Assembly (NCBI RefSeq): GCF_003991155.1
Contig: NZ_CP031293.1
Strand: one strand, 5' to 3'
Source of the DNA: Escherichia coli
GTDB lineage: Bacteria > Pseudomonadota > Gammaproteobacteria > Enterobacterales > Enterobacteriaceae
DNA length: 64,000 bases
In this document: piece by piece, positions 35,007-39,543 of the stretch
How positions within the stretch are numbered: position 1 is the first letter of the stretch
Layout: each line of letters begins with the position of its first letter
Notes under the pieces: model-generated
Database searches by the model: none
What the model was told of the DNA's origin: nothing
The model's input: only the letters and a program-made list of their open reading frames with translations
Translations under genes and position numbers: made by a program

Positions 35007-35011
35007 GGTTA

Positions 35012-35040
35012 GCGGCCCTCTTAGTGGGAAGAGGGCCGTA
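35012..35040. terminator. Bidirectional hairpin between ggt and yrhB frame
   Basis: cggccctctt ... aagagggccg inverted repeat read from sequence. Confidence 0.5.
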
Positions 35041-35043
35041 TTG

Positions 35044-35328
35044 TCAGGGCAAGCCGAAGGTAGCCTTTTTTATTTCATAATCCTGTAGATATTCTTCCAG
35101 TGGCTTTGCCGTTCCCAGAGAATGAATTTCACCACTGCCTTTATCAATAATAAAAGGTGCGTTACCAGCTAAGCGCGCGGCCTCATCTCCAGATTCAAGA
35201 AATTATTGTGATTCGAAACAGAAATACCAGCCCTGGCTAAAACGTCCATGCAGAGTGATGACGACAGGGAGATCTGCATCATCAAGGTAATGGTTCGCTT
35301 TCGCGAATGCGTCGTGATAAGTAATCAT
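35044..35328 (-). pseudogene. yrhB: yrhB-like reading frame interrupted by in-frame TAA (41 aa N-terminal part plus 52 aa continuing frame)
   Basis: Hand translation of minus strand: MITYHDAFAKANHYLDDADLPVVITLHGRFSQGWYFCFESQ-stop(35203..35205)-FLESGDEAARLAGNAPFIIDKGSGEIHSLGTAKPLEEYLQDYEIKKATFGLP-stop(35044..35046). The continuous 94-codon frame matches my recollection of the length of K-12 YrhB. Confidence 0.55.
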
Positions 35329-35777
35329 AATTATAATAAATATTATTGTTGATCGTTATATTATTATTCTTGCGTTATACTTTGAGAAAAGACGCGTTCA
35401 TCTTCGTCAAAGATATTATTAAATGCTGGTTTTGAAAAAAGTTCATCGGGTAATATACAGTCACGAAATAAGTATCTGCTAATGTTTTGTGATTTCTTTT
35501 TCAGAACGTCGAACGGGATTTTCTTATTTAAGATATCAGAATCTTATGATTCGGGTGAAATTCTAACTAAATCAACATGTCACTAAAATCATCATAGCCA
35601 TTAGCTATTTCGGCTAAAATAGAGATTACATGTCTTCGGTCCATCTCACTTAAGGAGTGTAGTTCCGTTGTAAGTTTTTCCATAGCTTGCATTGCTAAGT
35701 TTCGAACAAGGAATTTTCTGCTGGTAATCTCTAAAAAGATGGCATGGTTTATAATGATTTTTGTTACCTTTTGATTA

Positions 35778-36272
35778 TTATGAACAACTGTCCATGATTT
35801 CGTTTAAGAATGAAGAGAAATCACTAAACGAACTGAATATATTTTCTGTGCCAATATTATCTCTAATTTCAAAAAAGTTATTTTTAATGTCATAAGTAAA
35901 TATTGAAATGCTATCATCCCCGATCACTAACCGTTCTTGTAGATCAGGGTTTATGAAATCATCATTATTTCTATAAAATTCATTTACGGCAAAAAGGTTT
36001 TTAACTGAAGGTTCTGGAATCGAGAGGCTGAATAATCGTAATCCATTAACTTCGAATCCATCCATTGCTCTTAAAAAAGTAAGATAATCAGGTTGATTAT
36101 TAAAGAGAATACTAACTTCATTACATAACTTCTCCAGGCAATTAGTTGGATTAGAATTAAATTTTATTTGGATTATACTTTCAATAAATGATTCCTTGAG
36201 CGGTGCTTCAAATGGATAGTCTAAATCATTCATCATTTTTTTTAATTTATTTATTTGGGTTTTAGTCATCAT
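35778..36272 (-). CDS. Putative immunity protein for the upstream Hcp-HNH effector (yrhA-type position)
   Basis: ORF track 164 aa, AT-rich, start overlaps effector stop (ATGA); position immediately downstream of a polymorphic toxin gene. No catalytic motif recognised. Confidence 0.55.
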   Translation of the reverse strand: MMTKTQINKLKKMMNDLDYPFEAPLKESFIESIIQIKFNSNPTNCLEKLCNEVSILFNNQPDYLTFLRAMDGFEVNGLRLFSLSIPEPSVKNLFAVNEFYRNNDDFINPDLQERLVIGDDSISIFTYDIKNNFFEIRDNIGTENIFSSFSDFSSFLNEIMDSCS

Positions 36273-37447
36273 TTTGTGGGTTCCATAATATTTTTCATGG
36301 GAGGATAAATTGAGCCAGATGGAATGGCCCAGGGAGTGATTTTGCTTTCACCTACTAATATTCCCTTAGCTATTCGTGATTGCATGTTAGTAAAAACTTT
36401 ATGATATGGTTCGTTTTCGATTAATACTAAATTTTCGAAATCATTAGTACCACCATCATCTAGAGATAGTTTATGGTGAACATTATAATTTAGAGGAACA
36501 TTGCCCTTTCTCATTCTTAAAAGGTCTTCGGCGTTGAATCTTCCAGATGCTTCGGAGGTTTTTGCAAGTTTGATAAGAAAATTTTTTCTTACAGTTTTAT
36601 TAAACTCCTTTCGTAAGTTAGCTAAGTCTTTTGAAGGTCTCTTAATGTATATTATTTCTATTATGTCTATACCATCAAGAAGTTTTTGTTGACCTCTAAG
36701 TTTGCCTAAGTAACTATTTATTTCTGTATATGTATCAACATTAGAACGCTTTGTTAAAAGAATAGATGCTGTTGCTATCGCTATGCCCGCTGTTTTTTCA
36801 TTTAGTATTTGATCATAGCCTTTTATTGCATCTCCACCCAGTTTTTCCGCAGTATCTCTGAATCCTTCAATGTTCCCATTGTATACGCCACCAGCAGCAA
36901 GTAGCCTGCCAATAGCTTTGCTGTTTAACGTTTTGAAACGATTATTTGTTTGGTTTTTTGAATTTGGTAAAAACAAACAGTTATAATTTTCAGGGAGTGC
37001 CAAATAGCTGAACTCGGTATTTGCGATAATCTGTTGACAGAGGATAAATTCATAACTAACAGTTATTGTTTCTGTATCCAGTTGATTTTCAATGATCTGA
37101 TGATGAATAGCCGATAAAAAAGCGCCTCTTAGTTGTATATAATAATACTTTTCCCATCTACCAAATCTATTTATTCGATAGAAGTCAAATCCCATAAATA
37201 ATTGTTCATTATTGTTAATGGAATTAATAAATAATGGAGTGCTTTTATCAATTAATTTACAAAATGTTATACCATGGAACTGTGAACCAAGCCCCGTATT
37301 AGTAATACTATTTAAGAGTGAGAATGTAAATATTTCATCCTCATGCCCGCTCTGCCAGCGATTACCTGTAGACTCAGAAGTCCCACAACCTGCGGAGATG
37401 CTTCCTTGTTGTTCTCCCGTTACTGTCAGGTAAACAATATTACTCAT
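36269..37447 (-). CDS. yhhZ: Hcp-domain protein with C-terminal HNH-type nuclease toxin domain (Hcp-ET type, yhhZ)
   Basis: ORF track 392 aa. N-terminus MSNIVYLTVTGEQQGSISAGCGTSESTGNRW...GHEDEI matches the Hcp fold signature; C-terminus NYNVHHKLSLDDGGTNDFENLVLIENEPYHKVF carries an HNH-like motif. Confidence 0.82.
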   Translation of the reverse strand: MSNIVYLTVTGEQQGSISAGCGTSESTGNRWQSGHEDEIFTFSLLNSITNTGLGSQFHGITFCKLIDKSTPLFINSINNNEQLFMGFDFYRINRFGRWEKYYYIQLRGAFLSAIHHQIIENQLDTETITVSYEFILCQQIIANTEFSYLALPENYNCLFLPNSKNQTNNRFKTLNSKAIGRLLAAGGVYNGNIEGFRDTAEKLGGDAIKGYDQILNEKTAGIAIATASILLTKRSNVDTYTEINSYLGKLRGQQKLLDGIDIIEIIYIKRPSKDLANLRKEFNKTVRKNFLIKLAKTSEASGRFNAEDLLRMRKGNVPLNYNVHHKLSLDDGGTNDFENLVLIENEPYHKVFTNMQSRIAKGILVGESKITPWAIPSGSIYPPMKNIMEPTK

Positions 37448-37682
37448 CCCTGAAAAGTCCTTTTATGGCATGCTATTTTATTAATGGCACTATTATGCTT
37501 GTTAATTGTTATTTATTTACTCCAGGAAATTGTAGGCGTATATATTAATAATAAAATATTACACTTTAGGACGTAATTATGAGGTAAATCTCAATATATT
37601 TATTGGGCAAATAAATACATTAAAGGAAGATATGCCGATTTTGAATGACGCCCTTTTTCCATCTCAGAAAAAGGGCACTATC

Positions 37683-38171
37683 TTATTTCACCCGCGCCAT
37701 ATAATACGCATCGACATATTCACCATTACGTAATGCGTACTTCTTGCCAGTCCCTTCAATCTCAAAGCCGAATTTTTTATAGACCTTAATTGCTGGCGCG
37801 TTATCGACGAACACCGTTAGCTCGATACGATCTACCCGCAACCAGTTGTCGCACATATCAATCATTTCGCGCATCAGGGCGCTGGCGACGCCGCGGTTCT
37901 TCCAGCGAGAGTCGACACAGATACCAAAATCGGCAACATGACTGCGGCGCGGGCGTTGCTGTACATCAATGGTGAGATGACCTACTACGGTTCCATCAAT
38001 ACAGGCGACGAGTTGCTTGATGCCGGGGCGTTCGGCGAGTCGCTCCTGCCACATATAGTCTGAAGGATGAGGCACCTGTAGCGTGTTGTAATACACCTCC
38101 GGCTGGGCGTGAATCTGCCTGATGGCCTCGTAATCCCGTGTTTCTGCGTGGCGTATCACTATCTCACTCAT
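37683..38171 (-). CDS. yhhY: GNAT-family N-acetyltransferase YhhY
   Basis: ORF track 37683..38264; start moved to MSEIVIRHAET giving 162 aa; GNAT acetyl-CoA motif region (RWKNRGVASALM). Confidence 0.88.
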   Translation of the reverse strand: MSEIVIRHAETRDYEAIRQIHAQPEVYYNTLQVPHPSDYMWQERLAERPGIKQLVACIDGTVVGHLTIDVQQRPRRSHVADFGICVDSRWKNRGVASALMREMIDMCDNWLRVDRIELTVFVDNAPAIKVYKKFGFEIEGTGKKYALRNGEYVDAYYMARVK

Positions 38172-38266
38172 TCCTTTGTCCTCTTTGGGGTAAATGTCCC
38201 TTTCAACATCATTGACTTTCAAATGCGAGTCAAATGCATTTTTTTTGCAAAAAGTGTTGGACAAGT

Positions 38267-38289
38267 GCGAATGAGAATGATTATTATTG
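38267..38289 (+). promoter_or_regulatory. Fur box in ryhB promoter
   Basis: gcgaatgagaatgattattattg immediately upstream of the ryhB 5' end; resembles Fur consensus gataatgataatcattatc. Confidence 0.6.
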
Positions 38290-38293
38290 TCTT

Positions 38294-38386
38294 GCGATCA
38301 GGAAGACCCTCGCGGAGAACCTGAAAGCACGACATTGCTCACATTGCTTCCAGTATTACTTAGCCAGCCGGGTGCTGGCTTTTTTT
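38294..38386 (+). ncRNA. ryhB: Fur-regulated small RNA RyhB
   Basis: gcgatcaggaagaccctcgcggagaacctgaaagcacgacattgctcacattgcttccagtattacttagccagccgggtgctggctttt matches the RyhB sequence as I recall it, ending in a GC hairpin plus U-run; lies between yhhY and yhhX as in K-12. Confidence 0.85.
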
Positions 38387-38505
38387 TTGATCTTTCGTTT
38401 TCAAATTATCCACGGGAAGTGCTTGTGTTCGTTATGCGCACTCCAGTAGGAACCACGTCCGCTTTGCGCTAAGGTGTAAATAACCCCCTTAAAAAGGACG
38501 AAATC

Positions 38506-39543
38506 ATGGTCATCAACTGCGCCTTTATTGGCTTCGGCAAAAGCACCACCCGTTACCATCTGCCGTATGTACTTAACCGCAAGGATAGCTGGCATGTCGC
38601 GCATATTTTTCGCCGCCATGCGAAGCCGGAAGAACAGGCTCCCATTTACTCTCATATCCATTTCACCAGCGATCTCGACGAAGTGCTAAACGATCCCGAT
38701 GTTAAGCTGGTTGTCGTCTGCACCCACGCGGATAGCCATTTCGAATACGCGAAGCGCGCGCTGGAAGCCGGGAAAAATGTGCTGGTCGAAAAACCGTTCA
38801 CCCCGACGCTTGCCCAGGCGAAGGAGCTGTTTGAGTTGGCGAAAAGCAAAGGGCTGACCGTCACGCCGTATCAGAATCGTCGCTTTGATTCCTGCTTCCT
38901 GACGGCGAAAAAAGCGATTGAAAGCGGTAAGCTGGGAGAGATTGTTGAAGTGGAAAGCCATTTTGACTATTACCGCCCGGTGGCAGAAACCAAACCTGGG
39001 CTGCCGCAGGATGGCGCGTTCTATGGCCTTGGTGTGCATACCCTCGACCAGATTATCTCGCTGTTCGGTCGCCCGGATCACGTCGCTTATGACATCCGCA
39101 GCCTGCGTAATAAAGCCAATCCTGACGACACCTTCGAAGCGCAGCTGTTTTATGGCGATCTAAAAGCCATCGTCAAAACCAGCCATCTGGTGAAAATCGA
39201 TTATCCGAAATTTATCGTTCACGGTAAGAAAGGTTCGTTTATTAAATACGGTATCGACCAGCAGGAAACCAGCCTGAAGGCTAATATTATGCCGGGCGAA
39301 CCGGGATTCGCAGCGGATGATTCGGTCGGTGTGCTGGAGTATGTCAATGACGAGGGCGTGACGGTCAGAGAAGAGATGAAGCCGGAGGTGGGCGATTACG
39401 GGCGCGTTTATGATGCGTTGCATCAAACCATCACCAACGGTGCGCCAAATTACGTCAAGGAATCTGAAGTTCTTACCAATCTGGAAATCCTTGAACGCGG
39501 TTTTGAGCAAGCTTCTCCCTCCACAGTGACTCTCGCGAAGTAA
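38506..39543 (+). CDS. yhhX: Gfo/Idh/MocA-family NAD(P)-dependent oxidoreductase YhhX
   Basis: ORF track 345 aa; N-terminal Rossmann motif AFIGFGKS. Confidence 0.9.
   Translation: MVINCAFIGFGKSTTRYHLPYVLNRKDSWHVAHIFRRHAKPEEQAPIYSHIHFTSDLDEVLNDPDVKLVVVCTHADSHFEYAKRALEAGKNVLVEKPFTPTLAQAKELFELAKSKGLTVTPYQNRRFDSCFLTAKKAIESGKLGEIVEVESHFDYYRPVAETKPGLPQDGAFYGLGVHTLDQIISLFGRPDHVAYDIRSLRNKANPDDTFEAQLFYGDLKAIVKTSHLVKIDYPKFIVHGKKGSFIKYGIDQQETSLKANIMPGEPGFAADDSVGVLEYVNDEGVTVREEMKPEVGDYGRVYDALHQTITNGAPNYVKESEVLTNLEILERGFEQASPSTVTLAK

Follow-up and report, generated by a model that had tools for sequence, protein, structure and literature searches.

The sequence at positions 38294–38388 (+ strand) of the 64-kb window, by which we mean the whole stretch of DNA that was analysed, is almost certainly the known chromosomal ryhB gene, encoding an independent, Fur-repressed and Hfq-dependent small RNA (sRNA) whose function we take from the identical sequence of Escherichia coli K-12. 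In a pairwise alignment, all 95 nt were 100% identical to K-12 ryhB (b4451), which the RefSeq record of K-12 MG1655 lists as a 95-nt ncRNA located between yhhX and yhhY. The copy described here is already known, and its sequence is identical to that of the type example. To search for structured RNAs, the full 64-kb window was scanned with all 4227 Rfam families. The RyhB family (RF00057, gathering score 55) matched at 38323–38387 (+), covering model positions 1–67 of 67 with 83.1 bits and an E value of 3.6e-14, and no other family reached its gathering threshold anywhere in the window. All features that define RyhB at the sequence level were found: a covariance-model score above the threshold, the target-pairing core, a promoter with a Fur box, a terminator and the Escherichia synteny. 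The initial annotation had proposed RyhB with a Fur box at this place and had named a covariance-model search and an alignment to K-12 ryhB as checks. This proposal is borne out by the RF00057 match above the gathering score, by the identity at each base of 38294–38388 and by a Fur box that agrees with the consensus at 16 of 19 positions.

On the + strand, the locus (37900–38800) reads as an AT-rich segment, gacaagtgcgaatgagaatgattattattgtctt, followed by gcgatcaggaagaccctcgcggagaacctgaaagcacgacattgctcacattgcttccagtattacttagccagccgggtgctggc and then nine T. The 5′ start of the RNA is G38294 and the 3′ end lies inside the U run, which gives a length of 90–95 nt; by the original description RyhB is 90 nt long, which here corresponds to an end at 38383 (PMC3423075). 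The 93 nt (38294–38386) that had been assigned to RyhB fall inside the range allowed by the run of nine T. The wider interval marked before, 38267–38386, contains the features that were described for it, but leaves out the −35 hexamer (38258–38263) and the final two T. In the minimum free energy (MFE) fold of the 95-nt RNA (−24.1 kcal/mol), a 5′ stem and a central hairpin are followed by a single-stranded A/U stretch and then by the hairpin of the terminator. Compared to shuffled sequences, no excess of stability was observed (z = −0.67). Such unremarkable fold stability is usual for Hfq-dependent sRNAs with a long single-stranded seed. Fold stability is uninformative at this z value and was dropped as evidence, so the case for RyhB rests on the covariance model, the identity to K-12 and the conservation.

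The ryhB promoter, a sigma-70-like site, is located at 38258–38287 (+). It consists of a −35-like hexamer TGGACA (38258–38263), a spacer of 18 nt and a −10 hexamer TATTAT (38282–38287), the latter at −12 to −7 relative to 38294 and ending 7 nt before the start. Both hexamers are those of K-12. In a consensus scan this was the sole promoter-like site within 37900–38700, although the sensitivity of the scan was limited, as a promoter-like site for yhhY was not found on the other strand either. The Fur box (operator) spans 38273–38291, that is, −21 to −3 of ryhB, and overlaps the −10 hexamer. Its sequence, GACAATAATAATCATTCTC, matches the 19-bp consensus GATAATGATAATCATTATC at 16 of 19 positions. 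It was the single match with at most three mismatches on both strands of the 64-kb window, where shuffled sequences lead to an expectation of 0.01. The Fur-box-like palindrome that had been noticed upstream of the RNA is therefore present and unique in the window, and like the −35 and −10 hexamers it is identical to that of K-12. Placement of a Fur box over the −10 hexamer is the arrangement that would be expected for repression via promoter occlusion. For the K-12 ryhB promoter, whose Fur site is identical, a cluster of Fur sites with 25.2 bits and its centre at about −15 was predicted by Chen et al., who confirmed the binding of Fur by gel shift (PMC2189734).

The conserved core of the RNA, ACAUUGCUCACAUUGCUUCCAG, occupies 38332–38353 (+), corresponding to nucleotides 39–60 of RyhB. 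These 22 nt (ACATTGCTCACATTGCTTCCAG) occur once in the 64-kb window. In K-12, RyhB pairs with its targets via the region around C28–U68, for example C45–A65 with fepB (PMC4666370), and the core falls inside this target-pairing region. A variant of this region was observed in the clinical isolate E. coli 23AR0151 (NZ_CP195448.1; locus L005, 4001–4104), where 9 nt of the RyhB seed, ACATTGCTC, are duplicated in tandem. This strain has three ACATTGCT units instead of two, the gene being otherwise identical, and the duplication could alter target pairing.

The core is followed by an A/U-rich spacer, UAUUACUU, at 38354–38361 (+), which is unpaired in the fold and directly precedes the terminator. 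The Hfq-binding module of such RNAs comprises an A/U stretch, a hairpin and a 3′ poly-U tail (PMC4509938), and we infer that the spacer is part of this module. The Rho-independent terminator extends from 38362 to 38388 (+). Its stem-loop (AGCCAGC, loop CGGGU, GCUGGCU; 38362–38380) has seven pairs, five of them G-C, and a loop of 5 nt, and it is followed by a run of nine U at 38380–38388, just as the GC hairpin and U-run had been described before. In K-12, the nine-U terminator of ryhB is read through by about 20% of polymerases; the read-through products no longer bind Hfq, and the terminated RNA is the active, Hfq-binding form (PMC4509938). A second, weak terminator-like hairpin is present in the 5′ region of yhhX (38411–38427), with six pairs, three of them G-C, and a poor T tail. 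It was not taken as a feature, since the number of sites in the region (two found, 0.7 ± 0.9 expected) does not exceed what chance would give.

The ryhB locus (371 bases) was matched in 5424 of 5426 complete E. coli genomes, between the annotated genes yhhY and yhhX, and gave no match in the other two. The 95-nt RNA was at least 99% identical in 5358 of the 5424 genomes and was always chromosomal. The description of ryhB as core sequence is thus well founded. Altogether 5429 ryhB places were counted in the 5424 genomes, with at most three copies per genome. It had also been claimed that annotation centred on coding sequences misses this gene, and this was indeed observed: ryhB is unlabelled in a genome that is 100% identical to the window as well as in 8 of 8 evenly sampled RefSeq genomes. 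The NCBI PGAP pipeline gave no ryhB feature in the sampled non-K-12 E. coli genomes, whereas the curated K-12 record names it. The value of the present record is only one of annotation: few bacterial sRNAs have been studied as well as RyhB, and CDS-centred pipelines leave this intact, canonical copy unlabelled.

Beyond E. coli, a scan of species-representative genomes found the 22-nt core exactly in at least 120 loci of other Gammaproteobacteria. The matches listed come from Enterobacterales, Vibrionaceae, Aeromonadaceae and related metagenome-assembled genomes, and many of these species have two copies. The paired copies outside Escherichia (e.g. L007/L008, L010/L011 and L015/L016) are consistent with the known RyhB paralogues (‘sibling sRNAs’). 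In Salinivibrio sharmensis (L042, 11701–12028), two exact cores were observed in tandem, 306 bp apart. For the analysis of flanking elements we used the 117 core loci with complete flanks among the matches listed. Within the 70 nt of the expected promoter, a Fur box with at most four mismatches was found in 74% of these 117 loci and one with at most five mismatches in 88%. The controls, for which random segments were taken from these loci and the 70 nt were shuffled, gave 0.0% with at most four mismatches and 0.2–0.4% with at most five. A clean hairpin with a T-run was present within 45 nt downstream of the core in 93 of the 117 loci. Among the listed loci, 54 distinct terminator hairpins were observed with compensatory changes in the stem, for example GCCAGC/GCUGGC, GCCCGC/GCGGGC, GCCGGC/GCCGGC, GCCAAC/GUUGGC and GCCCAC/GUGGGC. 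An RNAalifold consensus of a MAFFT alignment of 82 distinct 3′ parts recovered only three terminator pairs, as variation in loop length broke the alignment. The covariation was therefore read from the list of hairpins of the individual sequences.

The genes on both sides place ryhB as in K-12, with a divergent neighbour, yhhY, on one side and a co-directional neighbour, yhhX, on the other. The gene yhhY (37683–38171, − strand) encodes a GNAT N-acetyltransferase of 162 aa (Pfam Acetyltransf_1, E 3.2e-19) and is named yhhY in the matching genomes. The gene yhhX (38506–39543, + strand) starts 117 nt downstream of ryhB and encodes a GFO/IDH/MocA oxidoreductase of 345 aa, as judged by a Pfam match. 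Among the loci listed, a divergent yhhY homologue was located 160–210 bp from the core in Escherichia, Citrobacter, Enterobacter, Klebsiella, Pluralibacter and Pseudescherichia, and a divergent yhhY neighbour was also present in Yersinia, Serratia, Pantoea, Erwinia and Rahnella. A same-strand yhhX downstream of RyhB was observed among these loci only in the Escherichia/Citrobacter/Enterobacter group. This restriction agrees with the report that ryhB of Klebsiella pneumoniae has yhhY, and not yhhX, as a flanking gene (PMC3423075).

We considered whether the region might instead encode a small protein, the match to an RNA family being incidental. Open reading frames on the + strand do exist mechanically at 38234–38449 (71 aa), 38287–38472 (61 aa) and 38109–38324 (71 aa). 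However, the T-run at 38239–38246 in the yhhY–ryhB intergenic region has eight T here and seven in K-12, and this one-T indel shifts the frames between strains. The frame at 38234–38449 encodes 71 aa here and 29 aa of a different sequence in K-12 and O157, and the frame at 38109–38324 encodes 71 aa here and 54 aa in both of those strains. The start contexts of the overlapping frames are missing in E. albertii, Citrobacter and Enterobacter. Moreover, the frames cross a terminator and start upstream of or inside the promoter, and conservation is seen at the nucleotide level (22 of 22 core positions) and not in any single frame. The frames spanning ryhB were rejected as protein-coding because of this frame instability, and the small-protein explanation is extremely improbable. 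To our knowledge, RyhB does not encode a peptide, in contrast to sgrS. It is also very unlikely that ryhB is present but impaired in this lineage. Such an impairment would have to come from the base at position −1 (38293, + strand), which is T here and C in K-12, O157:H7, 23AR0151 and E. albertii, and which might shift the choice of start or the strength of the promoter. Of 5424 E. coli genomes, only 394 have the exact 75-nt segment of promoter and 5′ region that carries this T, which thus looks like a minority allele. On the other hand, the T lies outside the Fur box, the RNA and both promoter hexamers. Sigma-70 promoters favour initiation at a purine (+1) that is preceded by a pyrimidine (−1), and this context is kept (T-G instead of C-G). 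Hundreds of independent isolates, of human, cattle, chicken and wastewater origin, furthermore carry the allele. The −1 T probably has no effect on initiation, although it could tune ryhB initiation in this lineage. Outside the RNA, the intergenic sequence differs from that of K-12 by an extra T near 38239, substitutions at 38400, 38405 and 38486 and an extra A at 38417; neither these changes nor the −1 base would be expected to cause a functional difference.

A further explanation starts from yhhX. The stretch might mainly be the 5′ leader of a Fur-regulated yhhX mRNA, with the RNA of about 90 nt arising as a mere by-product of attenuation. In line with this idea, yhhX lies 117 nt downstream on the same strand, it is always found downstream on the same strand where it is present among the loci listed, and the consensus scan detected no promoter-like site between the RyhB terminator and yhhX (38389–38505). 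The terminator is passed by about 20% of polymerases (PMC4509938), and iron limitation raises the level of yhhX mRNA, but no longer does so after deletion of ryhB together with its promoter (PMC8896160). Read-through from the ryhB promoter probably accounts for the transcription of yhhX, and the lack of another promoter-like site agrees with this, as weak evidence; transcription of yhhX from this promoter has been proposed, and direct proof was reported as lacking (PMC8896160, PMC4509938). Co-transcription is nevertheless compatible with the main explanation, an independent RyhB sRNA, and is not an alternative to it. The RNA, the Fur box and the terminator are kept in many genera, among them Yersinia, Serratia, Pantoea, Erwinia, Vibrio and Aeromonas, where no yhhX follows downstream. 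It is the terminated RNA that is active and binds Hfq, which the read-through products do not (PMC4509938), and control of many targets in trans is documented (PMC4666370). That the stretch is mainly a leader is accordingly a highly unlikely explanation. A deletion of ryhB in K-12 has reportedly already been complemented in trans by the 90-nt RNA alone.

For the independent sRNA, the mode of action can be outlined from the literature on the identical K-12 sequence, where Fur- and iron-dependent expression, the need for Hfq, read-through and the repression of sodB, sdh and other targets are documented (PMC2189734, PMC4666370, PMC4509938, PMC4211561). RyhB was reportedly first described by Masse and Gottesman in 2002 as a Fur-repressed, iron-sparing sRNA (cited via PMC4211561 and PMC2189734). 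When iron is sufficient, Fe2+-Fur would sit on the operator at 38273–38291, which overlaps both the start region and the −10 hexamer, and would thereby block RNA polymerase. Under iron scarcity, Fur would leave the operator and transcription would start at G38294. Most transcripts would terminate within the U run that follows the hairpin at 38362–38380, giving an RNA of 90–95 nt, and a fraction would read through the terminator into yhhX. Hfq is expected to bind the A/U stretch, the hairpin and the 3′ poly-U of this RNA. The central region (nucleotides 39–60 and their neighbours) would then pair with the ribosome-binding regions of mRNAs for non-essential iron proteins, with sodB, sdhCDAB, acnB, ftnA, bfr and others as targets, and this pairing would block translation and trigger decay of the target mRNA. 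A few targets (shiA, cirA) would be activated as part of the ‘iron-sparing’ response. In K-12, RyhB represses many genes of non-essential iron proteins under iron limitation by pairing near their ribosome-binding sites; it alters translation and/or mRNA stability, activates shiA and cirA, and the overall response is termed ‘iron-sparing’ (PMC4666370, PMC4211561). By analogy with sgrS–setA, we tentatively suggest, as a possibility that we rate somewhat below even, that ryhB and yhhX may form a Fur-controlled sRNA–mRNA operon in which the efficiency of the RyhB terminator, reportedly increased under stress, sets the ratio of the regulator to the YhhX oxidoreductase. If this operon is real, YhhX would be an unrecognised member of the iron-starvation response.

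The surroundings of ryhB include a variable AT-rich islet, as the initial annotation had stated. The AT-rich block at about 35007–37682 has a GC content of 0.28–0.39 compared to about 0.5–0.58 in its flanks. At least 80% of it was present in 3757 of 5426 genomes, and 1334 genomes showed no match. In the genome that is 100% identical, the islet carries yrhB, a yrhD fragment, yrhA and yhhZ/tssD. Of these genes, yrhB is marked with an internal stop and yrhA (35778–36272, − strand, 164 aa) is intact. The product of yhhZ/tssD (36269–37447, − strand, 392 aa) has an N-terminal Pfam T6SS_HCP domain (E 1.1e-10), and at E ≤ 0.001 Pfam gave no other domain for YhhZ. Its place among the Hcp1-family effectors, and its C-terminal His-Me (HNH) nuclease domain, were assigned in the literature (PMC5714182). 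The interval between ggt and yhhY is a variable cargo site. In K-12 an IS1E is inserted in yrhA, in strain HZ13 only an IS1 separates ggt from yhhY, and O157:H7 PV15-279 carries a DUF4225 gene in place of the ggt–yhhY islet cargo. In a four-way alignment, the right junction of the islet was located at about 37636 of the window for HZ13 and at the yhhY stop codon (37683) for O157:H7. The right boundary of the islet is therefore the 3′ end of yhhY. The claims that ryhB lies directly adjacent to the effector islet and that it defines the right-hand boundary of the islet did not hold. The start of ryhB at 38294 is 610–660 bp past the junction, and the whole of yhhY (37683–38171) and a conserved intergenic region of 122 bp intervene. 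The yhhY–ryhB(–yhhX) block belongs to the ancient core genome. Placing ryhB correctly prevents a misreading of the islet, as the ggt–yhhY cargo site ends at yhhY.

Among known systems, the closest is K-12 ryhB itself, where the RNA, the −35 and −10 hexamers and the Fur box are the same and where yhhY and yhhX flank the gene at equal distances and in equal orientation. The orthologues RfrA/RyhB-1 of Salmonella, RyhB1 of Yersinia and RyhB of Klebsiella occupy the same context next to yhhY and have the core, the terminator and a promoter with a Fur box in common with it (PMC4211561, PMC3423075). The 5′ thirds of these orthologues diverge, and the published identity is 82% for RfrA and 66–72% for the Yersinia copies (PMC4211561). 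Many of these species possess a second paralogue elsewhere, whereas E. coli and the window have one copy. A likeness also exists to sgrS–setA, where a co-directional protein gene lies downstream of an sRNA whose Rho-independent terminator is leaky, and ryhB–yhhX appears to behave similarly (PMC4509938, PMC8896160). The two systems differ in the RNA family, in the stress signal and in the regulator, which is SgrR for sgrS and Fur for ryhB.
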